Assembly (NCBI GenBank): GCA_016190175.1
Contig: JACPRC010000012.1
Location: 1-27,102, forward strand
DNA: 27,102 bases
Direction: 5' to 3'
Source: Planctomycetota bacterium
GTDB taxonomy: Bacteria; Planctomycetota; MHYJ01; JACPRB01
Shown here piece by piece: positions 2,371 to 27,102 of the stretch. A program made the position numbers and the translations under genes. Within the stretch, counting starts at the first letter, position 1. Each line of letters starts with the position of its first letter. The notes under the pieces were generated by a model. The model saw only the letters and a program-made list of their open reading frames with translations, did no database searches and was not told where the DNA came from.

Positions 2371-3639
2371 ATGAAACTCGCATGCGTCGGCGCCGGCGCC
2401 TGCTTCGCCAACGTCGTCGAGGACGTCCTGGCGAAGTGCCGCAAGAACAAGGACTCCGATTTCAAGTGGAAGGTGCTCTACGAGGCCCTCCAGCGCCCGG
2501 GACCGGGGCCGCAGTTCGAGGTCCACTACGTCGACTGCGGGCCCGAGCTCGCCCGCGCGAAGCAGAAGGGGGAAGTCTTCACCTACGACATCTCCAAGGG
2601 CGGCCTCCTCTCGGGCGCGGGCCACGTCGGCACGGGCGAGAAGTTCTTTCACGACGCCCAGTGGAGCGTCGTGCGGGACCTCCAGACGAACCTGAGCAAG
2701 AACCCGCCCGGCCTCTTCCTCTCGATCCGCGGCGGCGGCGCCACCAACTGCGGCGCGGGCTTCCAGCTCGACCGCGAGATCCTCGGGAAGTACGAGAACT
2801 CCGTCCTCCTCCAGTTCATCATCCTCCCCTACCGCGGCGAGGGGATCGAGGCGAGCCGCGTGGTGTACCTCGCCTGGCAGGTGCTGGAGCTCCTGCGCGA
2901 GTACCCCGACCGCTACGCTCCCGTCGTCATCTCGAACGAACAGATCCTGGCCGGCGCGCAGAGCTTCGAGAAGGCGGGGATGAACTGGTTCTACCCGCTC
3001 GCCAACACGATCGTCGCCGACGTGCTCGCGCGCATCCTCTATCCCACGCTCTATGCCGGCTCGGGCGAGAGCGGCGCGGTGGAGCAGGGCGCGTTCGAGC
3101 TGGACTCGCGGCAGAAGTACCTCGACATCCGCGACTTCGTCCGCCAGCCGGGCTTCCGCAGCGTCGGCTACGCCCACCTCGACGACACGGTGCCGCTCGA
3201 CCCGAAGGCGCTCGGGAAGCTCGTGAAGGACTCGCTCGGGGCTCTCCAGGTCGGGAAGATCCCGGACTCCGAGGAGCTGGGGCTGACGGGGAACCTCTCG
3301 CCGATGACGAACCCGCTCACGGCGTTCGCGCTCCTGACGGGTCCGCGCGGGGCGGTCGGCGACATCACGAAGGCGAAGCTCTCGGGCCTCCTCGAGGACG
3401 AGCTGCCCGGGTCGTTCCCCCGCGCGTACGCGTACGACATCACGCCGGGGAAGTACGAGTTCCTCCTTTTCCCGGGTGGCGGCGTCCCCGACGACATCCG
3501 CGCGTGGTGCGAGCGGTTCGGGAAGAACCTGCGCAACCCGCGGTACAAGGACGTCGTGAGCCAGGCGACGCACGACTTCGCGCGCGTCTGCGAGTACCAC
3601 GAGAAGCTCTGCGCGCAGTTCCAGATCAAGCCGGCATGA
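2371..3639 (+). CDS. Tubulin/FtsZ-superfamily GTPase (divergent tubulin-like protein), 422 aa.
   Basis: N-terminal glycine-rich T1-like loop CVGAGACFAN (tubulin: AGQCGNQ). T3-like LLSGAGHVGTGEKFF (tubulin: GQSGAGNNWAKGHY). T4-like signature RGGGATNCGAGF followed by DREILGKY (tubulin: GGGTGSG...SKIREEY). T7-like VISNEQIL (tubulin: IDNEALY; contains the catalytic Glu). Confidence 0.6.
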   Translation: MKLACVGAGACFANVVEDVLAKCRKNKDSDFKWKVLYEALQRPGPGPQFEVHYVDCGPELARAKQKGEVFTYDISKGGLLSGAGHVGTGEKFFHDAQWSVVRDLQTNLSKNPPGLFLSIRGGGATNCGAGFQLDREILGKYENSVLLQFIILPYRGEGIEASRVVYLAWQVLELLREYPDRYAPVVISNEQILAGAQSFEKAGMNWFYPLANTIVADVLARILYPTLYAGSGESGAVEQGAFELDSRQKYLDIRDFVRQPGFRSVGYAHLDDTVPLDPKALGKLVKDSLGALQVGKIPDSEELGLTGNLSPMTNPLTAFALLTGPRGAVGDITKAKLSGLLEDELPGSFPRAYAYDITPGKYEFLLFPGGGVPDDIRAWCERFGKNLRNPRYKDVVSQATHDFARVCEYHEKLCAQFQIKPA

Positions 3640-5220: not shown

Positions 5221-5278
5221 GGCGGCCTTATACTCGCCCGACTCGGCGGCCGCTAGGCTTTTCTTCGGCCCCCTAAGC

Positions 5279-5311
5279 CACACCAAAAGTTGACAGGGAG
5301 CTTTTGGTGTG
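5279..5311 (+). repeat. Solo REP-like palindromic element: CACACCAAAAG-TTGACAGGGAG-CTTTTGGTGTG (11-bp stem, 11-nt loop).
   Basis: Perfect inverted-repeat arms read directly. Near-identical copy at 12097-12133 and a degenerate inverted copy at 11183-11215, both flanking the RAYT gene. Confidence 0.6.
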
Positions 5312-8300: not shown

Positions 8301-11145
8301 ACCGCTGGCGGTCGTGCTCCTCGCGTCGATCGGCACCCGCGCGGAGACCTCCTCAGCCTGGAGCCGCGCGCTTGCGGACGCCCTGCTGGGCGGCACGGCG
8401 CCGTCCGCCTCCGATCCCGATCCCGTCGTGCGCGCGATGTGCGCCCTCGTCTTCGGGATGCGCGACGACCCCGGGCCGCTGATGACGCTCCTGGACGATC
8501 CGGATCCGCGGGTCGTCGAGGCGGCGCTCCTGGCGCTCCTGAGGGAGGATCCCGCGGATCCTCTGGAAACGGTGCCGTGCCCCTCCACGTGGGCCTATTT
8601 CCTGCTGGCGGCGAAGGCGGAGAAGAAACCGCCCGCGATCGCCCGGCTGCCCGCGTCGGAGCATGGCCGCATCGAAGCGGCCCTCCGCACGATCGCCGGG
8701 AAGACGCGGGCCGCGACGTCCCATCGGCTGGTGCTGGGACTCATGACGCGGGTGCCCATCGGCGTCGATCTCCTCCGCGGCGTGCTCCTGCGTTCTTTTC
8801 CCTCGTCGGGCGCGATCCGCGAGGGATTCGACCGCCAGGCTGCGCTCCAGCCGCGGGCGGAACTGGAGTCGCTTCTTCGGGAACTCGTGCAGACGGCGCC
8901 CCGCGAAGTCCGCCCGCGCTATTTCGAGGTCGCCTCGCAGAAGTCCCTCCTGACTGCGGACGATCTTCTCGGACAGATGGAATCCGACCTTCCCAAGATC
9001 CGGCTGGCGACACGCGACCTTCTCGTCCCGCTCCCCGACGCGCGCGCTGCGGCGCTCCTGGACCACGAGGATCTGCACGTCCGGCGGAACGCGGCTTGCC
9101 TCTTCGTTCTGTGGCACCTCGCCAGGACGCCGGGGTTCGGCTCCCTCTTCGCGCCGGCCACCTCGCCCCGTCGCTGCCAGACGCTGGCGTGGGCGCTGGC
9201 CCGGTTCGCCCTCGCCCCTTTCCACAAGAGGCGCGAGACGCCGGCGCTTTGGGGGGGGGAGATGATCAACGTGGAGATGATCAACTGGGAGGAGTTCGCA
9301 CCGTTCCGGGTCTCGGGAAAACTGCGCGTCAAGTCGCCCGAGGATGCGATCAAGCTGCTGCGCCTTGCGGTCGACCTCGATCCGTCCGACTCGAGCCTCC
9401 GGTACCACCTGGGATCGATGCTGGCGAGTCGAAGGTCCCACGCGGAGGCGATTGAGGCCCTTCTTGCGGCGGTCGAGAAACTCCCGCCGGAGTACGAGCA
9501 GATGCGCGCCGAGGCGTGCGAGAAGCTGGGGGAGGAGTATCTTGCGTCGAAGGACCCGGAGAACGCCATTCTCTGGCTTGAGCGATCGATGGCCTCCTTG
9601 CCCGAGCGGCCGGGTCCGCTCGCAAGGCTCGGAGAGGCGCTGATCCTCCGGGGGGAGTACGCGACCGCGGAGGCGAAGCTGACTCGTGCCCTCGACCTCG
9701 ACCCGCGGTCTGGAGAGGCGTACCTCATGCGAGGGCGCGCGCGGAAGAAACTGGGTCGTCTCGACGAGGCCGCCGTGGACTTGAGCAACGCGCTCGCCTA
9801 CGGAGGGAAGCCGACGGAGGAGGACAAGTCGGGGCTCGACTTCGACCGCGCGCTGCTGCCCTCGCTTCTGGAACGGATGCGCTGGGCGCGGACCGATGAC
9901 GAGCGCCTGAAGCTCGTCGGACACCTCAGACCGCTGATCGAGGGGGTCCCGTCTTCGGTCCGGGAGTGGCTCTCCTCAAGCAACTCCCTCCACCGCCGGA
10001 ACGCCGTCGCCGTGATCGCCGCAGTCTCGGACAGCCGCCGGGAGGAAGCGGACTGGGACGCGCTGGCCGCTGCGGCCGGCGATCCCGATCGGAGGGTGCG
10101 CCTGGCCGCCCTGTCGGCCTTGCGGGATGCGGAGGCGCGGCCGAGCGAGAGGGGAAGGTCGGACCTGCTGGCGGCCGCGCGGTCCGCCTTCCGTTCCGGG
10201 GATGAGGGACTTCGGGACGCGGCCCTGCCCGTCCTGGCCGCATGTCCGCTCGCGGAGGTCTGGGGCGAGCTTCTGGACTACATCGACCTGCCGCTACCCG
10301 TGATGGGCAGGGCGACGCAGCTCGCGAACCGCATGCGGGCTCTCGCCAGGTTCCTCAAGGAGGCGAAGCGGCTGCCCGCCGGGGCGGCGGAGCGGCTCCG
10401 TGCTTCGGCGGCGGTCGAAACGTGGGTCGTCCGTTTCGCGGCCGGCGAGCGCGGGGCGCGCTTCGTCGAGTCGCTCGTCGCGGCGCTGGTCGACGCCGAC
10501 CCGGCTCGGCGCGAGTACGCCGACGTCCTCGGCGCCGAATGGGACCCCGGGTTCGAGCAGGTTGCGGAAACTTGGATGGACCGTTCCGACCCCCACGCGG
10601 GCATCTACCTTGCCGGGTACGCGCCGGAGTTGTGGAAGAGGGCGGTCGATCGCCTGGCCGAGCTGGCCGTCCTGATCGACCATGCAATCGAGGCTCTCTT
10701 CCACCGTCGCGTCAGCGAGGGGGAGTCCTGTTGGCGCGGGCTTTCGGAGCCGCTGCTCGCGGTTCTGTGCCGTCTCCTGCCGGCGCGGACGGAGGCCGCA
10801 TGCGAGGTGGTCCGTCACTACGCGGCGCGGGCCGCGGGGCCGTCGCTTCGGACGATCGTGGGCGACGGGCGGGCGGCCGTCCGCGACCGGCTGGACGCGG
10901 CCGCGACGCTCGCCGAGATCGGCGAGGACGGGGGCGCGGAGTTCGTGGTCGAGGCGCTCCGGGGCCGGCTGGCGGGTGCAAGGGAGTACGCCGACCTCAA
11001 GCACGCGATCTGGCTCATCTGCCTCCGCGCGGCGGGGAAATCGGGGCGCAAGGAGTTCGTCCCCGTCCTGCGGGAATGCGCGGAGAAGTTCGAGGACAAT
11101 CACCTTCGCAAAGAGGCCGCCGCTGCGCTCCGCCAGTTGCAGTAG
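5362..11145 (+). CDS. Giant membrane Ser/Thr protein kinase, 1928 aa: N-terminal Hanks-type kinase, one TM helix, then about 1600 aa of HEAT/TPR repeats.
   Basis: Kinase motifs GRGGMGVVYEG, VAVK, HRDIKPANLML, DFGLA, GTPAYMSPE. TM segment LPAAVVLLSALVVAGVFAL. HEAT-like DPDPVVRAM..DDPDPRVVEAALLAL. TPR-like segment around 9300-9800. Start placed at ATG 5362 (MADAPAP...), downstream of the REP element. Confidence 0.8.
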   Translation: MADAPAPAPLRRIGDIELLREVGRGGMGVVYEGRQEKRRVAVKVLLGDDSDPEAVVRFQREASAASILQHPNIVPVTQFGRHEGVYYYVMPFVDGESLAARVRRQGALDPREAARFALQAALALDHAHRFGIVHRDIKPANLMLGERLMVTDFGLAKALAAPTLTAAGTVVGTPAYMSPEQAAGLKVGSRTDIYSLGATLYEMATGRVPFQERDVALLLRRIEETDPPLPSTIRAVPRDLETILLRAMQKDASLRYPTAAEMAEDLGRFLAGQSIRARRTGSVRKLARWVGRSRALPAAVVLLSALVVAGVFALRSKREVAKVRTEGREKEDAARRAQAERAFAAAEVLFGEKKWDEARKLYEEVVALGTPLAFEAKAALAELALAAGRLDDARRWIETLGRPPLLAAKLALREGEWRRAIELAKSVPDEPDAWDVLIEAHTALKDLDAARAALKEKVERQRARAQLLLREADAVVESEPGRAERLYRRALALCDAVGMEAPAAAGRCGRLLFARGLGREALPYLDRDPAQSYWSVRVRVDLGLWHDAHARFRPRDLDRESAETGLQIGLAMLDPTLVRACLPHVADPRLRSLATGESEDPVLRALVSSRAGDWERALPHATDPTVRGTLLFRLERTVEAAREFEKSRDPLGRIACAYELRGARAARELAEGAPGGDAVRVARVLLLLLEDRTKEALEVLMALFEEQPPIPAVALLVFRLQDVILRMPKEPLDRLTRKFENIFLRRFLSGDRREFERILWPQLNLGFRMLVPMMRDLAPYRMWQADQDWYVGNSPSETSILALLEDAAGGAPQIRELAEQRLRALDPAAILVLEQIAVRKGHPRAEAARRWAEVLAERRRQEQRMRLGSFVRLYSYHKVVTSLFGDELSLKDCLLKLTLFREAAGDLKAPEATAVLETYARDENLSVAITALQGLYAVDRAAFLRHLGSRAGLLAAALVDTVSLREPLESALKTAPEELRPLAVVLLASIGTRAETSSAWSRALADALLGGTAPSASDPDPVVRAMCALVFGMRDDPGPLMTLLDDPDPRVVEAALLALLREDPADPLETVPCPSTWAYFLLAAKAEKKPPAIARLPASEHGRIEAALRTIAGKTRAATSHRLVLGLMTRVPIGVDLLRGVLLRSFPSSGAIREGFDRQAALQPRAELESLLRELVQTAPREVRPRYFEVASQKSLLTADDLLGQMESDLPKIRLATRDLLVPLPDARAAALLDHEDLHVRRNAACLFVLWHLARTPGFGSLFAPATSPRRCQTLAWALARFALAPFHKRRETPALWGGEMINVEMINWEEFAPFRVSGKLRVKSPEDAIKLLRLAVDLDPSDSSLRYHLGSMLASRRSHAEAIEALLAAVEKLPPEYEQMRAEACEKLGEEYLASKDPENAILWLERSMASLPERPGPLARLGEALILRGEYATAEAKLTRALDLDPRSGEAYLMRGRARKKLGRLDEAAVDLSNALAYGGKPTEEDKSGLDFDRALLPSLLERMRWARTDDERLKLVGHLRPLIEGVPSSVREWLSSSNSLHRRNAVAVIAAVSDSRREEADWDALAAAAGDPDRRVRLAALSALRDAEARPSERGRSDLLAAARSAFRSGDEGLRDAALPVLAACPLAEVWGELLDYIDLPLPVMGRATQLANRMRALARFLKEAKRLPAGAAERLRASAAVETWVVRFAAGERGARFVESLVAALVDADPARREYADVLGAEWDPGFEQVAETWMDRSDPHAGIYLAGYAPELWKRAVDRLAELAVLIDHAIEALFHRRVSEGESCWRGLSEPLLAVLCRLLPARTEAACEVVRHYAARAAGPSLRTIVGDGRAAVRDRLDAAATLAEIGEDGGAEFVVEALRGRLAGAREYADLKHAIWLICLRAAGKSGRKEFVPVLRECAEKFEDNHLRKEAAAALRQLQ
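9251..9288 (+). repeat. G9 homopolymer (9251-9259) followed by a 15-bp tandem duplication (GAGATGATCAAC-GTG / GAGATGATCAAC-TGG), inside the kinase CDS.
   Basis: Direct reading. Encodes WGGEMINVEMINW. Confidence 0.5.
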
Positions 11146-11182
11146 CGGAATCCCTCATGGACCGGGCGCCAGTGAAACCAGC

Positions 11183-11215
11183 CCACCAATTCCTCCCTGT
11201 CAACTTTTTGAGCGT
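11183..11215 (-). repeat. Degenerate REP-like element in inverted orientation, 5' of the RAYT gene.
   Basis: Shares CTCCCTGTCAACTTTT (16/16) and CACCAA with the reverse complement of the 5279 element. The stem is partly decayed. Confidence 0.45.
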
Positions 11216-11255: not shown

Positions 11256-12095
11256 ATGGGGATGCCGACTGCGATGCGTAGAGAGAAACGAGGCGAAGGA
11301 GCGTGGCACGTGTACGCCCGAGGGGCGCGTCGACTTGGCTTGTTCTACGAAGACGACCATTACCGCCGCTTCTTGTGCCTCCTTGAGAAGGGGGTTGCTA
11401 CCTCCGGCTGTTCTCTTTGGGCCTACGCCCTCATGTCCAATCACTACCATTTGATCGTTTTCGGGACCCCCGCTCAACTTGCAGGCTGCATGCAAGCAGT
11501 CAATCATGGGTTCGCCGTGTTCTTCAATGAACATCACGGGGTTGCCGGGCACACGTTCGATGGACCCTACCACGCTCATTTCCAGAGAACACCCTACCTG
11601 CTGGTCCGGCGCGTGGCCTATGTGTTCCTGAACCCCGTGGCGGCTGGGATCACGCTGCGGGCAGAAGACTATGCCTGGTCCAGCTATCGGGACTTTGTCG
11701 GTCTTCCTGGAGCGCCCCTGCATGTCGATCCGGACCCCGTTCTGAGGCTCCTCCACCATGATCCTCAGGAGGCTCGCAAGGAATTCGCCGGGATGATGTG
11801 TCGGCTGACGCCTGGGCGCGTCGAGTCTTCCGAAGGGGTGGCAACGGCGGCCGCGGTGGCTCGAGAGCAATTTGAGTGGCTGCTCGATGCGGCACGCGCA
11901 AGGCAGCGTACCGATGACGGTGAGGACTCGGAAGAGCGAGCGTTGCGCTGGGGACTCCAGTGCGGCATACCCCCACGGATCATGGCCGGCGTCCTTGGAA
12001 ACGGAACTCCGGCCCCGGTCTATTGGAGACTCCGACAGTTGCGAAAGAAGCTGGAAGCAGATCCGGAACGCTACCGTCGATTGCCTCCCCCGTGA
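11256..12095 (+). CDS. IS200/IS605-family Y1 (HUH) transposase-like protein of the REP-associated RAYT type.
   Basis: N-terminal AWHVYARG (compare HVMNRG). HUH motif NHYHLIV. Catalytic-Tyr region YAWSSY. Somewhat lower GC than the neighbouring genes. Flanked by REP hairpins. Confidence 0.7.
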   Translation: MGMPTAMRREKRGEGAWHVYARGARRLGLFYEDDHYRRFLCLLEKGVATSGCSLWAYALMSNHYHLIVFGTPAQLAGCMQAVNHGFAVFFNEHHGVAGHTFDGPYHAHFQRTPYLLVRRVAYVFLNPVAAGITLRAEDYAWSSYRDFVGLPGAPLHVDPDPVLRLLHHDPQEARKEFAGMMCRLTPGRVESSEGVATAAAVAREQFEWLLDAARARQRTDDGEDSEERALRWGLQCGIPPRIMAGVLGNGTPAPVYWRLRQLRKKLEADPERYRRLPPP

Positions 12096-12096
12096 G

Positions 12097-12152
12097 CCCC
12101 ACCAAAAGTTGGCAGGGAGCTTTTGGTGTGATTGGGAGCTTTTGGTGTGATT
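12097..12152 (+). repeat. REP-like palindromic element (CACCAAAAG-TTGGCAGGGAG-CTTTTGGTGTGATT) plus a tandem 19-nt partial duplication (GGGAGCTTTTGGTGTGATT x2).
   Basis: Direct reading: 12115-12133 and 12134-12152 are identical. It lies between the convergent RAYT and gluQ genes and may act as a bidirectional terminator. Confidence 0.6.
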
Positions 12153-12157
12153 GCGCT

Positions 12158-13132: not shown

Positions 13133-14218
13133 TCACTCGACGCCCCCGCCTGCGCCGAGTCGGGTCAGACGGTCCACGGTCGTGGTGTCGTAGCTGGTGA
13201 ACCCTCCTCCCACGTAGATATCCCCGGAACCATCCCCTGCCGGGGCGATGGACCGGACCCAGTTGTTGAATCCGAAGCCGACGCCGAAGCCCGCGTCCAG
13301 CGTCCCGTCGGAGTTCAAGCGGGCAATGAAGTTGGTTGCGGTCCCGTTGTAGCTGGTAAAGAATCCTCCCACGTAGATGTCGCCGGAGCCGTCCTCCGCC
13401 GGAGTGATTGACCAGACGCTGGTGTTGAACCCGGAGCCGATGGCGAAGTCCGCGTCCAGCGTCCCGTCGGAGTTCAGGCGGACGATATAGTCCGTCGCGG
13501 CCCCGTTGTAGCTGGTGAAGTATCCTCCCACGTAGATATCCCCGGAGCCGTCCTCCGCCGGGGTGATTGGCCAGACGATGCTGTTGAACCCGGAGCCGAT
13601 GGTGAAGCCCGCGTCCACCGCCCCGTCGGAGTTCAGGCGGACGATGTAGTTCGTCGCGGTCCCGTTGTAGCTGGTGAAGTTCCCTCCCACGTAGATATCG
13701 CCGGAGCCGTCCCCCGCCGTGGCGATGGAGTTGACGCCGCTGTTGAACCCGGAGCCGACGGCGAAGCCCGCGTCCACCGTCCCGTCGTAGTTCAGGCGGA
13801 CAATGTAGTTCGTCGCCGTCCCGTTGTAGCTGGTGAAATCCCCTCTGACGTAGATATCGCCGGAGCCGTCCCCCGCCGGAGTGATTGACCAGACGGTGTT
13901 GGTGAACCCGGAGCCGACGGCGAAGCCCAGGTCGAGCGTTTCATCCGCGTTGAATCGAGCGATGCGATCGCGGCGCGTCGAGTTGTAGGTGAGGAAGCCG
14001 CCCGCTACGTAGACATCCCCGGTCCCATCCGCCGCGAGGGCGATCAAGTCGACCGGGCCGCTGAAACCCCGCGCCTGGTTGAAGCCTGTGGGGACCGGCG
14101 GGGGAGCGGGCGGTTGGTCGTCGTCGCCGTCACCATCACACCCCCCGACCAGCAGGAGCGACACGAACCCGATCGCGGCCAGCCGACCCATCCTCGATCT
14201 CCCGGCGGTCATGGTCAT
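13133..14218 (-). CDS. Lipoprotein with six tandem delta-60 repeats (Myxococcota-type beta-propeller-like repeats).
   Basis: Signal peptide and lipobox LLLVGGC. Six repeats of about 51 aa, each of the form DGSGDIYVGGxFTSYNGTATNYIVRLNSDGTLDAGFAIGSGFN. The repeats are also near-identical at the DNA level (153-bp period). Confidence 0.75.
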   Translation of the reverse strand: MTMTAGRSRMGRLAAIGFVSLLLVGGCDGDGDDDQPPAPPPVPTGFNQARGFSGPVDLIALAADGTGDVYVAGGFLTYNSTRRDRIARFNADETLDLGFAVGSGFTNTVWSITPAGDGSGDIYVRGDFTSYNGTATNYIVRLNYDGTVDAGFAVGSGFNSGVNSIATAGDGSGDIYVGGNFTSYNGTATNYIVRLNSDGAVDAGFTIGSGFNSIVWPITPAEDGSGDIYVGGYFTSYNGAATDYIVRLNSDGTLDADFAIGSGFNTSVWSITPAEDGSGDIYVGGFFTSYNGTATNFIARLNSDGTLDAGFGVGFGFNNWVRSIAPAGDGSGDIYVGGGFTSYDTTTVDRLTRLGAGGGVE

Positions 14219-17313: not shown

Positions 17314-18126
17314 TCACTTCCTCGCGAACAACTCCATTGCGTACGGGATCCACAGGTCCGCGTTCCGCCGGCCGGGCGCGAGGAGCTTCGGCGGCTTCTC
17401 CTCCGTGAACACGGTGTCCGGCGGGTTGTCGTTGATGCGCGTCCACGGGGCCTTGCCCGTCGCCGACGCGATCATCTGCAACGCGTGGCCGAACTTCTCC
17501 TTGTGGACGTGGTCGCGCTCGCTCTGGATGCGGAGATACGGGCAACGGAAGAGCGGCGCGAAGCGCACGGCCTCGCGCTCCTTCCACCACTCCTCGTCGG
17601 ACGTGCGGTGGCCGCCGAACGTGATGCGGCCCGGATGGTCGAAGACGCGGTCCCATACGGTAACCCAGAACCGGTCGCTCGGCCCCTCCCAGTCGATGTA
17701 GAACGCGACCTTCTCGTCCGGGTACCGGCCGAGCATCCCCGACGCCATCGCGATGCCGTAGGAGAGCGACACGATCCCGACGCGGTCGAGGTACTCCAGT
17801 TTCTTCGCGGCGCGGACGACGGCGAGAAGGCCGTCCTGGTGGATCTTGCCGTTGTAGTCCTCGGTGCCCCCGCTCTTCCCGCGCCCGTCGGGATCGAAGA
17901 TGACGAGGACCATCCCCTTCGACGTGACCTGGTCGGGGAGGGAAGGGGGCATCTGGGATCCGAACCCGATGCCCCCCGGGACGAGGATGACGGCGGGGTA
18001 TTTCCGTTGCGCGGAAGCGTCCTTGGGGGCGGAGACCCGGACCCAGAGCTTCGCCCCGCTTGCGGGATTCGTGACGTCGAGCTTCTCCTGAGCGAGAAGC
18101 GTCAGTGCGAGGGCAATCGTCTTCAT
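17314..18126 (-). CDS. Secreted alpha/beta-hydrolase-fold protein (dienelactone hydrolase / S9-like esterase).
   Basis: Signal peptide MKTIALALTLLAQE. Nucleophile elbow GIVSLSYG (GxSxG). Overall alpha/beta hydrolase pattern. Confidence 0.7.
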   Translation of the reverse strand: MKTIALALTLLAQEKLDVTNPASGAKLWVRVSAPKDASAQRKYPAVILVPGGIGFGSQMPPSLPDQVTSKGMVLVIFDPDGRGKSGGTEDYNGKIHQDGLLAVVRAAKKLEYLDRVGIVSLSYGIAMASGMLGRYPDEKVAFYIDWEGPSDRFWVTVWDRVFDHPGRITFGGHRTSDEEWWKEREAVRFAPLFRCPYLRIQSERDHVHKEKFGHALQMIASATGKAPWTRINDNPPDTVFTEEKPPKLLAPGRRNADLWIPYAMELFARK

Positions 18127-18190
18127 AAGGACGGAAGAACCTACCGGCCCGGCGGGTGCCGCGCCGGGAGAGAAAACACCCGGGCCCGGA

Positions 18191-18421
18191 TCGGGCCATC
18201 AAGAGCCATTGTCGGGCATGTCGCATTGGTTTTCGGGCATGCAAGAACGGACATCGGGCATACCAAATCGAATATCGGGCATACAAGAATGGATGTCGGG
18301 CAAGCCTGATCGTAAGTCGGGCATCATCCGATCAATATCGGGCATCATCGAATAATTATTGGGCATCATCCGATCAATGTCGGGCACTCATGAGCGCGCA
18401 TCGGGCATGAAAGAGCGACGC
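18191..18421. repeat. Phased array of 11 direct repeats with an exact 21-bp period. Each unit is the conserved octamer TCGGGCAT (ATGCCCGA on the minus strand) plus 13 variable nt. The segment is AT-enriched.
   Basis: Octamer starts at 18191, 18212, 18233, 18254, 18275, 18296, 18317, 18338, 18359, 18380 and 18401 (all spacings exactly 21). Variants are TCGGGCCA, TCGGGCAA, TTGGGCAT and TCGGGCAC. It lies between the kinase stop (18426) and the hydrolase start (18126). Confidence 0.85.
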
Positions 18422-18425
18422 GCGC

Positions 18426-20636
18426 CTACTGCCCGAACATCTCGCGGAGCCGCGGTCCCGCGTCCGGGTCCTCCAGGAGGGGCTGGAGGTACGAGTCCTT
18501 CATGGCGAACACCTTCGCCAGGACGAAGAAGGCGGGCGCGCGGTGGATGTACTTGAACCGAACCGGCGGTCCCGTCCCCTTCGTGAACAGGCCGTACTCG
18601 CCGGCGGCGGTCGCGTGCTTGATCGCGTTCTGGATGGAAGCCAGGACCGGGCGGCCCTGCTTCGCCGTCGCGCAGGCAAGATGGTACTCGGCGGGGTAGT
18701 AGTTCGTGAGCTGCGAGAACTTGCGTCCCGCCTGCTCCAGCCGGTTCTGGAGGAGATCGAGGACTCCCTGGAGATAGGTCCTCAGGTTGCTCCCAGGGAT
18801 GATCTGGACGATCGGCTCCGCCTCCCGGAACCGGCCCTGCTCGATGTGGCAGAGGGCGCGCAGGCACAGAACGGCCTCGTGCCCGCCCTTGGGGAGACGG
18901 GAGGCGGCATCGAGGATATTCTCGGCATCCTGCAGCCGGCCGTAGGTGAGGTGGGTCAGGGCGGCGATCGCCCCCATGACCGGGGTGGGGAAGTCCTCGA
19001 GGAGCTGCGGCATCTGGGACGCGTGATCGCCGTTCTTCCTGGCGTTGTAGGAGGCGATGGCCAGGAGGAGGCGGAACTCCGGAGCGGGGCCTTTGCCGCG
19101 CCGTTCCTCCTGCGGCGCCGCGACCTCGGTGTCCTTCTCGTCGAGGAGCTTGTTCACGGCGCCGGTGAAGGGCAGGTTGGAGAACTTGTCGAGCGCTTCG
19201 TGGACGGCGACGAACCGCGGGTCCTTGAGGAGACTCCGGAAGTCGATGCGATAGGGGCGGTCGACGAGCCGGAACGGTCCCGAGTTGGTCATGATGATGC
19301 CCAACTGGATCGCGCGGACCTCCCCTTCGGGTGCGCCCCGCCGCACCGCGTCCTCGAGGAGGCCGAGCGCCTCCTGATCGCGGCCCAGGAGGATCTCGGC
19401 GCGCGCGGCGACGTTGTGGCCCCAGATGTCCTTGGGGTTGCTCTCGATCGCGCGGCGCGCGAGGTCGCGGAGCCGGGCGACCTCCGCATCGCGCACGTTG
19501 AGCTCGCCGTTCAGCAAGGCGCGCCCGCCGCGCCTCCAGGGGTACGGTTCGAAGTTGCGGGGGGGCAGGTCTCCGTCGGCGGCCGGTTTCGGGATCGCGG
19601 GGAGCGGAAGGCCGACCCGGGCGGCCGGCAGACCGGGATCCGGCCTCACGGCAATGGCGATCGCGGCGCCGACCAGGACCAGCCCGGTTGCCGCCGCCGC
19701 GGGCATCCAGGTCCGGCGGACGATCCGCAGCACGGCCGACGGCGCGCGCGCGGAGACGTCCCCCCCGCCGAGCCACGAGCGAAGCTCCTTCGCCAGCGCG
19801 CCCGCGGAGGGATAGCGGTCCTCCTTCCGCTTCGCCATCGCCTTGAAGACGATCGCGGCGAGCTCCTTTGGAACCTCCTTGAGGGGCGGAGCGTCGAGGG
19901 CAAGGATCTGCTGCATCACGCCGAACGGGGTCGAGGCGCGGAACGGCAGCCGTCCCGAGAGCATCTCGTACATCAGGACGCCCAGGCTGTAGACGTCCGA
20001 CCGGGCGTCCACGTCGGCGGGCGACCCGTCCGCCTGCTCGGGCGACATGTAGTAGGGCGTCCCGATGACCGCGCCCGTGCGCGTCACGCGCTCGTCCTTG
20101 CCTATCGTGCGGGAGAGGCCGAAATCGACGAGCACCGGCCGCCCCTCCCCCGTGATGAGGATGTTGGACGGCTTGACGTCGCGATGGACGACGCCCTGGC
20201 GATGAGCGTGTTCGAGGGCCTCGGCGATCAGGACGAAACACTGCACCTTGCGGCGCGTCGGCGCGGCGGCGATGCTCGACAGCGGTTTGCCGCCGACGAG
20301 GTCCATCACCAGGAACGGCCGCCCATCGACGTCGCCGATCTCGTGGATCCGGACGATGCCCGGATGGGGCGCGCGCGACGGGGCGCGCGCCTCGCGGAGG
20401 AGCCGCTCGTAGTCCGTCTTGGAGAGCGAGGGCGGGAGGATCTTGAGGGCGACGTCGCGGTCGAGCGTGGGGTCGTGCGCCTTCCAGACCACGCCGACGC
20501 CGCCGCGGCCCAGCTCCTCGAGGAGGCGGAAGCGCCCGAACGAGGCCTGCTGCGGCACGGGCGCGGCCGGCTCCTCCTTCTCGAAGACGTTGCGGCACAG
20601 CCGGTCGAACACGGACTCGCGGGGCTTATCCGCCAT
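18426..20636 (-). CDS. Membrane Ser/Thr protein kinase: N-terminal Hanks kinase, a TM helix, and a C-terminal TPR-like helical domain.
   Basis: Motifs GRGGVGVVWKA, VALK, HRDVKPSNILI, DFGLS, GTPYYMSPE. TM segment LVLVGAAIAIAV. Its start overlaps the upstream sigma-factor stop by 11 nt. Confidence 0.85.
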   Translation of the reverse strand: MADKPRESVFDRLCRNVFEKEEPAAPVPQQASFGRFRLLEELGRGGVGVVWKAHDPTLDRDVALKILPPSLSKTDYERLLREARAPSRAPHPGIVRIHEIGDVDGRPFLVMDLVGGKPLSSIAAAPTRRKVQCFVLIAEALEHAHRQGVVHRDVKPSNILITGEGRPVLVDFGLSRTIGKDERVTRTGAVIGTPYYMSPEQADGSPADVDARSDVYSLGVLMYEMLSGRLPFRASTPFGVMQQILALDAPPLKEVPKELAAIVFKAMAKRKEDRYPSAGALAKELRSWLGGGDVSARAPSAVLRIVRRTWMPAAAATGLVLVGAAIAIAVRPDPGLPAARVGLPLPAIPKPAADGDLPPRNFEPYPWRRGGRALLNGELNVRDAEVARLRDLARRAIESNPKDIWGHNVAARAEILLGRDQEALGLLEDAVRRGAPEGEVRAIQLGIIMTNSGPFRLVDRPYRIDFRSLLKDPRFVAVHEALDKFSNLPFTGAVNKLLDEKDTEVAAPQEERRGKGPAPEFRLLLAIASYNARKNGDHASQMPQLLEDFPTPVMGAIAALTHLTYGRLQDAENILDAASRLPKGGHEAVLCLRALCHIEQGRFREAEPIVQIIPGSNLRTYLQGVLDLLQNRLEQAGRKFSQLTNYYPAEYHLACATAKQGRPVLASIQNAIKHATAAGEYGLFTKGTGPPVRFKYIHRAPAFFVLAKVFAMKDSYLQPLLEDPDAGPRLREMFGQ

Positions 20637-21375
20637 CCTTCTCCCCGCTGCCGAACAGGTACTGCATCTCGGCGTCGAGGTCCGACGGGTCGGTGACGGA
20701 CTGGAGCACGCGGTCGCGGAGGAAGCTGCGCAGGTCCGCGCGCACGCGGCGCAGCGCCCCGCGGACGGCGTCCTCGGTCACGCCGGACCGGTGCGAGAGG
20801 TCCGCGTACGAGGGCGGCGCCGGCGCGAGGTCGTACGCCTCGAAGATCTTGAAGACGTTCTCGCGTCCCGACTGCCGGTACTGGGTCCGCAGCGCCGCGA
20901 TCGCGTCCTGCATCAGCGCCTGCGCCCAGACGCGGTCGAAGGCGCGCTCGACGGACTCCGTCTTCGCCGGGAGCTGGAACAGGGGTTCCTCCGCCGCATC
21001 GATCGAGACGGGCCTCGACCCGCCGCCCCGCTTGATCCTCCCCTCGTCGCGTTTCTGGTTGAGCATGAAGTGCTCCAGCGCCGCGCGGACGAAGGAGCGG
21101 AAGCGCCCGCGGTCGGGCGAGACGGACTTGAGGAAGTCCTTCTCGAGGAACGTGGCGAAGAACTCCTGCGTGAGGTCCTTCGCGTCCTCGTTCCCGCGGT
21201 TCCACCGCAGGCGCACGAGCCAGTACACGGGCTTCCAGTAGTAGCGGCAGAGCTTCTCCAGGTTGGCCTGGGATTCCTTGTCACTCGCGTCGCGGGCGCC
21301 GAGGATGACGGTCCACAGGGTGGGCGGGAAGGCGCCGCCGGGGCCGCCGAGCTGGGTGACGGGGTCGACGTTCAT
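20626..21375 (-). CDS. ECF-type sigma-70 family sigma factor (the STK-associated type) with a C-terminal extension.
   Basis: Region-2-like LEKLCRYYWKPVYWLVRLRWNRGNEDAKDLTQEFF. Region-4 HTH-like SYADLSHRSGVTEDAVRGALRRVRADL. The ATG at 21375 overlaps the upstream stop (ATGA). Confidence 0.7.
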   Translation of the reverse strand: MNVDPVTQLGGPGGAFPPTLWTVILGARDASDKESQANLEKLCRYYWKPVYWLVRLRWNRGNEDAKDLTQEFFATFLEKDFLKSVSPDRGRFRSFVRAALEHFMLNQKRDEGRIKRGGGSRPVSIDAAEEPLFQLPAKTESVERAFDRVWAQALMQDAIAALRTQYRQSGRENVFKIFEAYDLAPAPPSYADLSHRSGVTEDAVRGALRRVRADLRSFLRDRVLQSVTDPSDLDAEMQYLFGSGEKDGG

Positions 21376-21998
21376 AGGTATCGCAGCAGCGCGCCGATCT
21401 CCTCGGGCATCTCCTCCGCGGTGCAGTACTCGCCGACGAGGCGCTCGATCTCCGCCTTCAGTTTCAACTTCGCGCGATGGACATGGTTGGTTACATCGCC
21501 CTCGCTGCGCCCGAGCGCGGCGGCGATCTCCTTGTAGGACTTCCCCCCGATCTGGAGCTCGAGGGCCGCGAAGTGGGGGTCGGGGCGCAGCCGTTCCATC
21601 GCGCGCCCGACGAGGTTCCGCACCCACAGCCGGTCGAACTCGGCGTCCGGGGGCGCCTCCGCGGGGAGATCGAAGTCGCCGAGCGCGACCTCGCGGCGCC
21701 GGTCGCGCGCGCCCGCGAGCGCGTGCCGGCGGTGCGAGGCGATCACGTGCCGCGTGACGGCGAGGAGGAGGTTGCGGAACCTCCCCTTGCTGCGGTCGGC
21801 CTTCCCCAGGAACTCCTCGCGGCAGACGCGGAGGAACACCTCCTGGGCGACGTCCTCGGCATCCTCGGGAGGGATCCCCTGCGCGCGCGCGAAGTCGACG
21901 ACGGGCTGCCGGTATCGGCGCACGACGAGGTCCTTGACGCGCTCGGGGTCGCTGCGGACCTGGAGGAGGCACGTCCACATCGTGGAGGGAAGCGGCAC
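21372..21998 (-). CDS. ECF-type sigma factor with a C-terminal extension. Start is the GTG at 21998 or the ATG at 21980.
   Basis: Region-2-like DFARAQGIPPEDAEDVAQEVFLRV. Region-4 SYKEIAAALGRSEGDVTNHVHRAKLKLK. TATACT lies 6 nt upstream of the GTG at 21998, so the transcript may be leaderless. Confidence 0.7.
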   Translation of the reverse strand: MPLPSTMWTCLLQVRSDPERVKDLVVRRYRQPVVDFARAQGIPPEDAEDVAQEVFLRVCREEFLGKADRSKGRFRNLLLAVTRHVIASHRRHALAGARDRRREVALGDFDLPAEAPPDAEFDRLWVRNLVGRAMERLRPDPHFAALELQIGGKSYKEIAAALGRSEGDVTNHVHRAKLKLKAEIERLVGEYCTAEEMPEEIGALLRYL

Positions 21999-22248: not shown

Positions 22249-22277
22249 TTGACCCCCGCCGAACCCCGCGATAGATT
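22249..22277 (+). promoter_or_regulatory. Candidate sigma70-like promoter TTGACC-N17-TAGATT upstream of the MVP-like gene.
   Basis: Direct reading. The -10 ends about 28 nt before the ATG at 22306. GGAGG lies 8 nt upstream of that ATG. Confidence 0.3.
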
Positions 22278-22305
22278 GCCTCCCGCCCATATGGGAGGAA
22301 GAGAC

Positions 22306-24471
22306 ATGCCACAGGAGCGCGAGCTGCGGGAACGCGACATCCTCGTCGCGTCGAACGAGTACGCCTACGTCCAGGATCTCACGAAGGGCGACATCGTCCT
22401 CTACGTGGGGCCGACGAAGATCAGCCTCTCCAACACGGAACGGCTCGTCGAGTTCCGCAACGGCCGCTTCGTCCCCGTGCGCGGCGAAGAGGGCGGGCTC
22501 GGCGTCAACCCGTTCGTCGTCGCGTCGTCGGCGCAGTACATCATCCTCGAGAACCCGCCGAAGGACCCGAACGTCCGGACGGTGAAGGGCAACAACTCGG
22601 CGATCGAGCTCCTCATCGGCAAGAAGTTCGTCGTCTCCGGCCCCGCCACGTTCCCGCTCTGGCCCGGCCAGAAGGCGCAGGTGATCGACGGCCACGAGTT
22701 GCGCGAGGACCAGTACCTCGTGATCCGCGTGTACGACCGGGTCGAGGGAGAGAACGATCCCATCGGGACGCAGCGGATCGTGAAGGGCTCCGAGGTCAGC
22801 TTCTACATTCCGAAGACCGGGCTCGAGGTCGTGCCCGACGAGAAGGGCTACGTGCGCAGCGCGGTGACGCTCCTTGAGGGCGAGTACTGCATCCTCCTGG
22901 CGCCGAACGGCCAGACGCGGTTCGTGCGCGGGCCCGCGGTGGTCTTCCCGGGCCCGATGGAGGAGTTCGTCCGCAAAGGCGGGACGAAGATCTTCAAGGC
23001 CGTGCCGCAGCGGAAGAACATGGGACTCCGCGTGCGCGTGCTGAAGGACTTCACGGCCGCGGACTCGCAGCAGGTGCCCGCGGGGAAGTACACCGCGGGG
23101 CAGGAGATCTTCCTCAAGGACCGCGAGGGCTTCTTCTTCCCGAGCGAGTCGCTCGAGGTGACGGCGGAGGTGCAGGCGATCCCGATCGCGGAGAAGGAGG
23201 GGATCTACGTCCGCAACCTCGAGACGGGCAAGGTCGCGACCGAGATCGGGCCGAAGAACACCCTCGCCGATCCCACGAAGACGGAGATCGTCTCGCGCGC
23301 GCTCGACCCGGAGATCGAGAAGCTCTACGGCGTCACGGGTCGGGACAAGGGCAAGGCGGTCTCGATCTACATCCCGCCGAGCTACGCCGTGATGGTGACG
23401 GGGAAGAACAAGCGCGAGGTCGTGATCGGCCCCGCGACGCGCATCCTCGACTTCGACGAGGACCTGGAGATCCTCAAGCTCTCGACCGGGAAGCCGAAGA
23501 CGGACGAGACGCTCCTCTCGACCTGCTTCCTCCAGATCACGGGGAACAAGGTTTCCGACATCGTGCGCGTCAAGACCGCGGACCACGTGGAGCTGGAGGT
23601 GACGGCCTCCTACCGCGTGACGTTCGTCGCGCAGGACGCGCGCGAGCGCGAGAAGTGGTTCAACGTGAAGAACTACGTCGGGCTCCTGTGCGACCACCTC
23701 GGTTCGATCGTGCGCGCGGCGGTGCAGGCGACGCCGATCGAATCGTTCCACACGCGCAGCGCCGAGGTCGTGCGCGCGGCGATCCTCGGCGAGAAGAAGG
23801 GCGAGGAGAAGCGCGTCGGGCGCCACTTCGCCGAGAACGCGATGTCGGTCTACGACGTCGAGGTGCTCGACGTGAAGATCCTGGACCAGGACGTCAAGAA
23901 GCTCCTCTCGGACGCGCAGCGCAGCGCGATCGTCTCGGAGGTGCAGAAGAAGCAGGAGAACCTCCGCCTGAGCAACGAGTCGGTCAAGCAGGAAGTGGAC
24001 CGCAGGATCTACGAGGCGCAGATGACCACGATCGCGAAGGCGATCGATCTCGAAGGGGTCAAGCGGAACCTGTCGGAGGCGCGCGTCCGAGAGGCGGTCG
24101 AGCTGGACAAGCTGGAGAAGGTGGGGAAGGCGCAGAACCAGGCGCAGGCGCTCGACGTGTCGAGCACGGCGGCCGCCGCGGCCGCGGAGCGCGAGGCGCA
24201 AGTGGAGATCAAGAGCCTGAGCGCGAAGGTGGGGGCGTTCAAGGAGCAGATGTCGGCGCTGCAGCCGGAGCTCGTCACGACGCTCAAGGTGCTCGGCGAC
24301 CAGGAGATGAGCAAGGAGCTGACGCGGAACCTCTCGCCGCTGGCGATCCTGGGCGGGCAGAGCGTGGCGGAGGTGGCGGAGCGGCTCCTGAAGGCGCTTC
24401 CCGTCGGGATCGTGCTCAAGAACGGCGCGGCGGAGCCGGTGACGAAGGCGAGGAAGAAGACGGCGGAGTAA
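22306..24471 (+). CDS. Major vault protein (MVP) homolog, 721 aa: vault repeat domains, a shoulder-like region and a C-terminal coiled-coil cap-helix.
   Basis: Aligned against remembered human MVP. RIPPYHYIHVLD versus [21 protein letters not shown] versus [21 protein letters not shown] versus [34 protein letters not shown] versus [38 protein letters not shown] versus [18 protein letters not shown]. The last roughly 180 aa are predicted coiled coil. Confidence 0.8.
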   Translation: [721 protein letters not shown]

Positions 24472-26532: not shown

Positions 26533-27102
26533 ATGGCTCCGACCAGCCTCCGCGGCTACGTGGTGCAGGAAGAAGTGAAGGAAGGGTCGATCGGGACCGT
26601 CTATCGCGTCACCGACTCCCGGAACCGCACGCTCGCCCTCAAGCAGATATCGGCCGGGAACGCCGTTCAGCCGCGAAAGCGCAGGGAGTTCCGCAAGGAG
26701 TACGAGATCCAGAAGCGCCTCGACCATCCTGCGATCGTCAAGGTGTTCGACTACGTGGAGATGGCCCCGCAGGATTTCTTCACGATGGAGTACTTCGAGA
26801 GCGAGAGCCTCAAGGTCACGATGTTCCACCTCCCGGAGCGCATCCGCAAGCGCGAGTTCCGGCTCCTGCGCCGGCTCGCGGAGGCGCTCGAACACGTCCA
26901 CTCGAAGGGGATCATCCACAAGGACATCAAGCCCGAGAACGTCCTCGTCGACGCCAAGGGCGACATCCGTCTGATCGACTTCTCCCTCGGCCAGACGAGG
27001 TGGGACCGGTGGCTCCAGTTCGGAAAACGCGTCGAGGGGACGCCGCTCTACATGGCGCCCGAGCAGATCCGCGGCGGGCGCTGCGACGAGCGCACCGACA
27101 TC
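26533..27102 (+). CDS. Ser/Thr protein kinase, 3'-truncated by the window end.
   Basis: GSIGTVYRV, ALKQI, HKDIKPENVLV, DFSLG, GTPLYMAPE. The reading frame is open to the last base. Confidence 0.8.
   Translation, partial: MAPTSLRGYVVQEEVKEGSIGTVYRVTDSRNRTLALKQISAGNAVQPRKRREFRKEYEIQKRLDHPAIVKVFDYVEMAPQDFFTMEYFESESLKVTMFHLPERIRKREFRLLRRLAEALEHVHSKGIIHKDIKPENVLVDAKGDIRLIDFSLGQTRWDRWLQFGKRVEGTPLYMAPEQIRGGRCDERTDI

Follow-up and report, generated by a model that had tools for sequence, protein, structure and literature searches.

What is a strictly phased row of short direct repeats doing in the gap between the kinase and hydrolase genes of an uncultured Planctomycetota bacterium: is it read as DNA, translated, transcribed into a functional RNA, or does it do nothing at all? 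The row lies on contig JACPRC010000012.1, whose full length of 27,102 nucleotides was analyzed and is called the window below. A sequence-only reading had described the row as eleven perfectly phased copies of an octamer, separated by spacers without conservation. We cut the sequence into 21-bp registers, which delimited the following features.

18191 to 18421, plus strand: phased array of 11 units of 21 bp (repeat family D2)
18212 to 18282, plus strand: four consecutive exact TCGGGCAT octamers (at 18212, 18233, 18254, and 18275) with A-type spacers
18317 to 18379, plus strand: three units whose spacers form a separate, recently duplicated family, CATCCGATCAATA and variants (repeat family D6)
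18430 to 18436, minus strand: inverted exact copy of TCGGGCA, overlapping the last codons and the stop of the kinase gene (…FGQ-stop)

The units start at 18191 + 21k through 18401, with zero indels over ten intervals, and follow the plus-strand consensus TCGGGCAT-nnnn-GAnYG-nnnn. Thus, the exact 21-bp spacing stands, but it holds for a degenerate motif, since only 7 of the 11 units carry TCGGGCAT exactly (18212, 18233, 18254, 18275, 18317, 18338, and 18401). The other four differ from it by one or two changes each: TCGGGCCA (18191), TCGGGCAA (18296), TTGGGCAT (18359), and TCGGGCAC (18380). Conservation is concentrated in the first seven columns, where the core 7-mer TCGGGCA is exact in nine units and TNGGGC is found in all eleven; 8 of the 11 units have T in column 8. 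That the array is not a product of chance was borne out by dinucleotide-preserving shuffles (n = 100), which gave 1.0 ± 0.9 exact octamers compared with the 8 observed in the window and in no case reached 8. In the rest of the 27 kb, the motif occurs at chance frequency, with no excess when one mismatch is allowed. Besides the inverted copy, which lies 22 bp past the last direct copy, only about three other exact TCGGGCA sequences are found outside the array.

The spacers proved less featureless than described. They are near random, yet their mean pairwise identity is 0.37 compared with 0.26 expected from composition, they form two sub-families, and they contain a weak second box, GAnYG, in columns 13 to 17 (G13 in 7, A14 in 9, Y16 in 11, and G17 in 7 of 11 units). 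The center of this box is 11 bp from the center of the core, on the same helical face. The 13-nt spacers of the units at 18317, 18338, and 18359 have 8 to 12 bases in common with one another and only 1 to 4 with the remaining spacers, which is the random level. Because the spacers are so diverged, Tandem Repeats Finder recovered the array only in fragments (periods 21 and 42, 75 to 78% matches). Spacer columns agree with their own consensus in about 55% of cells, compared with 75 of 77 cells in columns 1 to 7. Together with the few bases shared between spacer families, this indicates that the core was held while its neighbors reached saturation. GATC sites are present in some of the spacers.

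The array is also an AT-enriched island, as had been claimed, with a GC content of 0.52 compared with 0.64 to 0.74 along the contig. For the spacers alone the value is 0.45, whereas most other intergenic stretches have 0.60 to 0.72 and the third codon positions of native genes (GC3) about 0.9, a difference which argues that the AT-richness is maintained. In short, the array is real and nonrandom, its anatomy and phasing are statistically solid, it is under constraint at the nucleotide level, and, as the comparisons below make plain, it is specific to its lineage.

The period of 21.0 bp corresponds to two helical turns. Since the units repeat at exactly this distance, every site lies on one and the same helical face, and proteins bound to the sites could therefore touch each other and coat the array cooperatively. 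Our leading interpretation, which we put forward tentatively, is that the array is a noncoding, lineage-specific row of about 11 in-phase sites for one sequence-specific DNA-binding protein, probably an operator-like scaffold; protein binding, cooperativity, and a regulatory role are what we infer for it. Each 21-bp unit would offer one strong 7- to 8-bp box (TCGGGCAT) and, one helical turn further on, one weak box (GAnYG), so that in every unit a dimer or a two-domain protein would contact the major groove twice, once specifically and once loosely, and bound proteins could contact their neighbors and cooperatively coat about 230 bp. The sequence-only reading had pointed to the two-turn geometry as typical of iteron or centromere-like sites or of a cooperative transcription-factor array, and with its 21.0-bp period, 8-bp box, and AT-rich spacers the array does look like a phased protein-binding array: it combines the direct repeats, the helical phase, and the nucleotide-level conservation of the contact box by which phased operators are recognized.

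The closest parallel for a single unit is the operator of the phage P2 C repressor, in which 8-bp direct repeats lie 22 bp apart and are bound by a dimer through one specific and one less specific contact (PMC2995052). Both systems use a nonpalindromic 8-bp box in direct repeats 21 to 22 bp apart, center to center, and the contact model for P2 C is mirrored by the strong core and weak second box of the array. However, P2 has two half-sites that span a promoter element next to the repressor gene, whereas the array has eleven units, no nearby repressor gene, and no phage context. For the logic of the row as a whole, the closest parallel is RctB on the 12-mers of oriCII, which have to be phased on one helical face (PMC4551981). 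No candidate binding protein is encoded adjacent to the array.

What such a scaffold might control depends on the setting, which comprises the following features.

20629 to 21375 and 21372 to 21998, both minus strand: two sigma-70/ECF-like genes preceding the kinase gene
18426 to 20636, minus strand: gene for a Ser/Thr protein kinase with TPR, upstream neighbor of the array
18394 to 18425, minus strand: GC-rich stem-loop directly after the kinase stop (arms GCGCGCATCG and CGACGCGCGC, 12-nt loop)
18355 to 18383, minus strand: sigma-70-like promoter match, CCGACA-17-AATAAT (1 found, 0.2 expected)
18178 to 18197, minus strand: weak terminator-like hairpin (GGCCCGATCCGGGCC, then GTTTTCTCTC), formed partly from the last, degenerate unit
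18127 to 18190, minus strand: ancestral hydrolase leader, 72% GC, whose GGTTCT block and neighboring positions are common to relatives without the array
17314 to 18126, minus strand: alpha/beta-hydrolase-like gene, downstream neighbor of the array (NCBI HYY17_00795)

The array indeed sits between the stop of the Ser/Thr kinase gene (18426) and the start of the hydrolase gene (18126). Along the minus strand, the kinase stop is followed in turn by the GC-rich stem-loop, the array, the weak terminator-like hairpin, the 64-bp leader, and the hydrolase ATG. In a homology search, the hydrolase-like protein was 100% identical to HYY17_00795, and its homologues carry PF02129/PF00561; a gene for an M28 peptidase comes next. 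On the other side, the sigma-like gene at 20629 to 21375 overlaps the start of the kinase gene. The available portion of the ECF classification paper treats ECF sigma factors associated with kinases as a recognized signaling arrangement and gives no target motif for the kinase-associated ECF groups (PMC7826278). Nothing links the two sigma-like genes or the kinase to the array motif. We also compared the boxes by eye with an ECF promoter and rejected this candidate, as their spacings misfit the usual ECF -35/-10 geometry. The content of the contig is chromosomal, including a GluRS-like gene and kinases.

Given the position of the array between an ECF-sigma/sigma/kinase module and the hydrolase and peptidase genes, which in relatives follow the kinase gene directly, an operator or roadblock-type scaffold appears to be its most likely role. 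A scaffold of the large-operator or roadblock type would set the level of transcription that enters the hydrolase gene or starts toward it. The sigma-70-like promoter match points toward the hydrolase gene and combines a unit's core with the first bases of the spacer that comes next; with a -35/-10 pair arising from adjacent units, the array could also carry promoter activity.

Since the array is co-oriented with both flanking genes, it might alternatively act as RNA. A minus-strand transcript, made with or after the kinase mRNA, would then present eleven single-stranded AUGCCCGA motifs, which could titrate or recruit an RNA-binding protein (as a sponge or 3'-UTR element) or form a C-rich Rho-loading stretch. 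The bracketing of the array by the stem-loop and the terminator-like hairpin would fit this proposal, as would the excess of C over G and of U over A on the minus strand, and constraint at the nucleotide level suits RNA equally well with DNA. The upstream stem-loop contains the first octamer in its loop, and no U-run follows it. The hairpin is not significant alone, with 2 overlapping sites compared with 0.5 expected, and as a terminator it does not rise above the chance level. On neither strand does the folding energy stand out (z = -1.3 and -1.2), and the Rfam search gave no match, either at gathering thresholds or at E ≤ 10. Of two models of a hairpin per unit, one paired 56% of cells and the other 50%, values that did not exceed those of shuffles or slid controls, and neither model showed a compensatory, double-sided change. 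Moreover, the sponge RNAs known to us do not need exact 21-nt spacing. We consider action as RNA distinctly unlikely, and nothing specific speaks for an unstructured RNA. Among known RNAs, a CsrB/RsmZ-type sponge, which shows its repeated motif in the hairpin loops of a discrete and terminated transcript, was rejected because the array has no supported unit hairpin, an ordinary folding energy, and no Rfam match.

If the array is a binding scaffold, is it one that relatives share? The closest homologues of the hydrolase are 70% (P0002) and 62 to 64% (P0003 to P0005) identical, and their contigs retain the kinase-hydrolase-peptidase neighborhood. None of the syntenic loci (L121 to L127, L239, and L240) contains a phased run of TCGGGCA. 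In L121 to L125, the spacer between kinase and hydrolase measures 850 bp and contains a 73-aa gene and no tandem repeat; judging the sequence by eye, we take this gene to be HicB-like and to be followed by an uncalled HicA-like frame. The same spacer is 62 bp long in L126, and in L239 a different gene ends 17 bp ahead of the hydrolase gene. The last 45 nt or so before the hydrolase ATG, including GGTTCT, can be aligned across three lineages. It follows from this shared leader, and from the lack of the array in these relatives, that the array was inserted or expanded between the ancestral leader and the stop of the kinase gene, in a slot that has taken up other insertions as well.

The sequence-only reading had held that absence from close relatives, with no associated binding protein, would speak against a DNA site. 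In formal terms this is what we found, as the nearest available relatives are without the array. Given that the hydrolases are only 62 to 70% identical, we take the absence as a sign of lineage specificity, not of lack of function.

Wider searches led to the same picture. We scanned a genome collection for three successive TCGGGCA-N14 units (more than 120 loci among the matches listed) and metagenomes for three successive TCGGGCAT units, excluding heptamer repeats (111 loci). Neither the listed genome matches nor the metagenome loci included an array like this one; each listed locus was a heptamer microsatellite of the type (TCGGGCA)n, a coding heptad repeat, or a young tandem repeat whose spacers are conserved. 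Among the 158 non-heptamer 21-bp arrays of at least four units in the listed scan matches, 107 lie inside open frames of at least 150 codons, and the array described here is the only long one outside such a frame with diverged spacers (identity of 0.37). A scan of viral contigs revealed no similar array, and BLAST against 72,556 plasmids and 50,697 phages showed no similarity. The array is therefore an orphan, known from a single locus on one metagenome-assembled contig, with no second copy within the 27 kb, and its absence from every relative and, among the matches listed, from every collection searched means that comparison offers no proof of function.

The orphan status would be expected if the array were a functionless, decaying minisatellite whose conserved core has no role, for example, a leftover piece of foreign DNA or a (TCGGGCA)n heptanucleotide microsatellite rearranged into units of 21 bp. 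Heptamer repeats of this sequence are common, also in Planctomycetota MAGs (L014, L028, and L081), and 21 is 3 × 7. When each unit is divided into three heptamers, the second and third still have 51 matches to the core in total, compared with 36 ± 5 after shuffling (P = 0.005), although an offset of 10 scores about as high; the spacer sub-families, in turn, show that units are still being duplicated. Together, the heptamer residues and the (TCGGGCA)n repeats in Planctomycetota MAGs suggest that the array may have grown from a heptamer repeat, which, owing to the weak offset control, is a lead only. As an account of the present array, however, neutral decay is unlikely. It cannot hold seven contiguous columns at 97% beside 13 near-random neighbors, nor conserve the core across spacer families with only 1 to 4 of 13 bases in common, and mutation bias does not explain the pattern, since both A/T and G/C positions of the core were kept. 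The zero indels over ten intervals and the persistence of AT-rich spacers in a genome with a GC3 of about 0.9 count against it as well.

A more serious rival is that the array is, or once was, coding. Its minus strand can be read as a Met/Pro/Asp-rich heptad peptide, (M-P-D-[ILV]-[RD]-[SR]-x)n, either as a live ORF or as the decaying fragment of a heptad gene from a donor of lower GC content. The ORF reported by the sequence-only reading is present.

18199 to 18387, minus strand: 62-codon ORF with a GTG start, (M-P-D-[ILV]-x-x-x)9, peptide VPDIDRMMPNNYSMMPDIDR…

The MPD frame, ATG CCC GAY…, runs through all 11 units and is in frame with the hydrolase ATG, but it is broken by TGA at 18388 to 18390 and at 18199 to 18201, that is, after unit 1 and after unit 10, so that only 9 of the 11 units are open. 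Several properties of the variation nevertheless look like those of a translated sequence. Within the variable part, it is the third-codon columns that vary most (mean information of 0.31 compared with 0.69 and 0.77), which for the five third-codon columns used in this test gives an exact P of 10/1287 = 0.0078, or about 0.02 when corrected for three phases. The change appears synonymous (Asp GAT/GAC, Ile ATT/ATC, Arg CGN, Ser TCN), the second box coincides exactly with two codons, CGN TCN (Arg-Ser), whose wobble bases vary, and replacements in the core are conservative (Met to Leu or Val, Asp to Glu or Asn). The pN/pS ratio in the MPD frame is 0.67, the lowest of all six frames (0.98 to 1.68 in the other five; P = 0.053 by column shuffling). 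Neither the codon-like periodicity nor this low ratio is predicted by a pure DNA-site model. In addition, 107 of the 158 listed 21-bp arrays lie in long open frames, as described above, the other long arrays with diverged spacers that were translated (L001 and L109) are coding, and the low GC content of the array fits a foreign origin, the same slot holding an inserted HicAB-like pair in a relative.

Against translation stands, in particular, the proline codon, which is CCC in 11 of 11 units, whereas change at the other wobble positions has reached saturation (Arg CGC/CGA/CGT/CGG, Ser TCA/TCG/TCT). In native genes, 40% of prolines are encoded by CCC and 56% by CCG, and the heptad array of L109, which is truly coding, shows variation in its conserved Pro and Cys codons. 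The TCG and GGC of the core, read in the complementary frame, never change either. An unchanging CCC wobble beside saturated ones implies that at least part of the constraint acts on the nucleotide sequence itself. Codon usage is non-native too: ATT, TCT/TCA, and CGA/CGT each make up 1 to 5% in native genes, and, counted by hand, the variable codons have a GC3 of about 0.41, compared with about 0.9 in native genes. The peptide also lacks recognizable kin. The ORFs of the array are absent from a collection of 15 billion proteins, a word index yielded no protein with three 5-residue words in common with the 62-aa peptide, and Pfam gave no match; the 160 phmmer matches are generic, unrelated xPDxxxx low-complexity repeats, not a family, and those inspected were tandem repeats of near-identical units, mostly eukaryote-like.

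With heptad-repeat coding sequences, such as the Cys-Pro heptad protein of L109 and the xPDxxxx repeats, the array shares the strict 21-nt period, what looks like codon-periodic variability, and a conserved core of two to three codons among variable ones. In contrast to them, however, it contains stops, an alien codon usage, and an invariant wobble, whereas coding heptads lie in long open frames with host-like composition (GC3 of 0.81 in L109). What marks a coding heptad repeat, namely, a single open frame with host-like codon usage and homologous proteins elsewhere, was not found for the array. The original judgment that the ORF is probably noncoding because of its low GC3 is thus reinforced by codon usage, but it was too quick in view of the periodicity and the lowest pN/pS in the MPD frame. 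Because of the invariant wobble C, we rank coding second, not first, and consider a present or former coding origin possible if not probable, and in any case a serious, live rival to the binding scaffold.

The arrays of parC, tubC, and iterons are also built of short direct repeats that keep helical phase and have AT-rich spacers between them (PMC6009700; PMC4551981), and it had been proposed that the array is such a maintenance site of a plasmid or chromosome, either a parC- or tubC-type partition centromere or an iteron origin. The short direct repeats of parC (bound by ParR) and tubC (bound by TubR) come in blocks that serve both to nucleate a filament or ring of protein and to repress a promoter (PMC6009700). 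The eleven direct units do match the description of tubC as several short direct repeats in blocks. Nevertheless, parC and tubC each lie directly upstream of the operon for their own proteins, parR-parM or tubR-tubZ, as is the case for all described tubC sites (PMC6009700), while the array is flanked by a kinase and a hydrolase gene, not by ParR/ParM, TubR/TubZ, or Rep, so that the centromere proposal does not hold. A type II parC centromere was rejected on the same grounds, as there is no parM or parR beside the array and its neighbors are the kinase, the hydrolase, the M28 peptidase, and the sigma factors. The tubulin-like GTPase named as a speculative partner, a 422-aa ORF 15 kb away (2371 to 3639, plus strand), could not be upheld either: its Pfam Tubulin match has E = 0.11 and 13 bits, far below the cut-off of 33, and the ORF has no NCBIfam match and no sequence match to a solved structure in the PDB.

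An origin finds little more in its favor. The RctB array on oriCII of Vibrio cholerae consists of six 12-mers whose same-face helical phasing is required for function (PMC4551981), and like the present array it is built of a short box and spacer in tandem, with GATC in both. In contrast to oriCII, the array lacks an initiator gene, a DnaA box, an AT-rich unwinding element, and a skew switch, and its context is chromosomal and intergenic, between two co-oriented genes. The iteron proposal thus fell for want of a Rep gene, a DnaA box, or a skew switch: none of the 20 gene-sized ORFs scanned contains a Rep-like domain, no DnaA box lies near the array (the sole DnaA-box-like sequence, with 1 mismatch, is at 26912 and at chance level), and cumulative GC skew rises monotonically through the array. 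Since the array has no similarity to plasmids or phages in the collections named above, and the contig has the content of a chromosome, the maintenance-site reading is largely refuted by context, and we regard it as highly improbable.

Two further repeat classes can be set apart on structural grounds. CRISPR arrays have repeats of about 23 to 50 bp, unique spacers of similar size, and usually cas genes. As the sequence-only reading correctly concluded, an 8-bp repeat with 13-bp spacers is not of this kind; the spacers are, besides, mutually related, and the sole match to a CRISPR direct repeat has E = 3.3 and lies at the flank. A REP is a palindrome that forms a hairpin; as a rule REPs occur as inverted pairs, and copies are scattered over the genome. 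The array resembles REP/BIME elements in placing short repeats in an intergenic operon spacer but differs from them in its direct units, in the lack of a supported hairpin (the pairing of 50 to 56% equaling that of shuffles), and in having no other copies in the window. A RAYT-like gene with its own REP-like palindromes (CACCAAAAG…CTTTTGGTG) is present on the same contig; this RAYT-associated palindrome has no sequence in common with the array, and a REP relationship was rejected.

Taken together, the array is best read, by analogy, as a variant within a class that is already known, the binding arrays of phased direct repeats. It is tempting to speculate that it goes beyond this class and represents the docking track of a novel planctomycete nucleoprotein switch, on which a protein would polymerize along 11 same-face sites between the signaling module and its output genes, so that the occupancy of the array, not a single operator, would set the expression of these genes. 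Equally, the eleven motifs might be read as single-stranded RNA by an 8-nt-specific repeat protein. Even jointly, we consider these two versions of the track quite unlikely.

At present, the value of the array is that of a clean case in which nucleotide-level and codon-level signatures conflict, and it opens no general question yet. If it is a binding track, its meaning would be wider. It would then rank among the longest operators with strictly phased direct repeats on a bacterial chromosome, and it adjoins a sigma/kinase module. To our knowledge, very few transcription-factor sites have been characterized in the Planctomycetes, and a binding track at this locus would provide a first handle on the cis-regulatory logic of the phylum.

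Among the matches listed in scans for TCGGGCA-type repeats with a 21-bp period are several kinds of loci in other genomes. A non-coding 21-bp tandem repeat, TCGGGCAGTCGTTTATTGAAT, is conserved in 4 to 14 copies in many Nostoc and Tolypothrix genomes, where it does not lie within long open frames (loci L013, L026, L039, L044, L064, L068-L070, L079, L080, and L088); it appears to be a separate cyanobacterial repeat family. At L109, a Verrucomicrobia MAG locus of ~2.5 kb (JAPLUI010000331.1), a very long open frame encodes ~90 heptads T-x-C-P-x-x-x, a Cys-Pro heptad protein, which accounts for how often TCGGGCA-type scans meet TGCCCG spaced at 21 nt. Pure (TCGGGCA)n heptanucleotide microsatellites, in turn, occur in phyla as widely different as Planctomycetota, Sorangium, Streptomyces, Paraburkholderia, Gilliamella, and cyanobacteria (L014, L028, L081, L042, L019, L024, L063, and others).

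The contig itself carries further repeats:

13190-14086, minus strand: 159-bp unit, ~4.7 copies with 85% matches, inside a DUF5122 beta-propeller gene
11181-11208, 11256-12095, 12088-12153, and 5269-5311: RAYT-like ORF and REP-like copies

The first is an ordinary coding blade repeat. The ORF in the second resembles a RAYT tyrosine transposase (its NCBIfam match to REP_Tyr_transpos, at E=1.5e-9, is under the cut-off) and is flanked on both sides by a palindromic REP-like element, CACCAAAAGTTGrCAGGGAGCTTTTGGTG, with one inverted copy upstream and, downstream, a copy together with a perfect 19-bp tandem duplicate; an additional copy lies at the start of the gene for a 1951-aa kinase. Together, the ORF and its palindromes look like a small planctomycete REP/RAYT system.

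Around the array and the adjacent kinase gene, the following features were found:

18430-18436: exact 7-mer core in inverted orientation, 22 bp past the array
20629-21375 and 21372-21998, minus strand: two adjacent sigma-70/ECF-like genes, ahead of the kinase
22249-24471, plus strand: MVP-like ORF with Vault_3 and Vault_4 repeats

The sigma-like gene next to the kinase (20629-21375), which matches Sigma70_r2 at no better than E=0.0012, overlaps the kinase start by ~8 to 11 nt; this suggests that the two sigma genes and the kinase form one operon, of the kinase-regulated ECF type. The ORF on the plus strand has the shoulder domain of the major vault protein (MVP_shoulder in Pfam, E=1.4e-31) and encodes a bacterial MVP-like protein, 4 kb away from the array.

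The inverted core copy overlaps the last kinase codons (…FGQ*), and the kinase ends in …AGQ* or …LGR* in relatives, so the copy may owe its sequence to coding by coincidence, or else be a seed or boundary of the array. In the closest relative, which has the kinase-hydrolase synteny without the array, the spacer between the two genes holds a pair of frames (L121, 9520-9741 and ~9745-9955), the second without a gene call, which, judged by eye without a profile search, we take to be a HicB-like antitoxin and a HicA-like toxin; L122-L125 likewise carry such a pair. Insertions recur at this site between the kinase and hydrolase genes.
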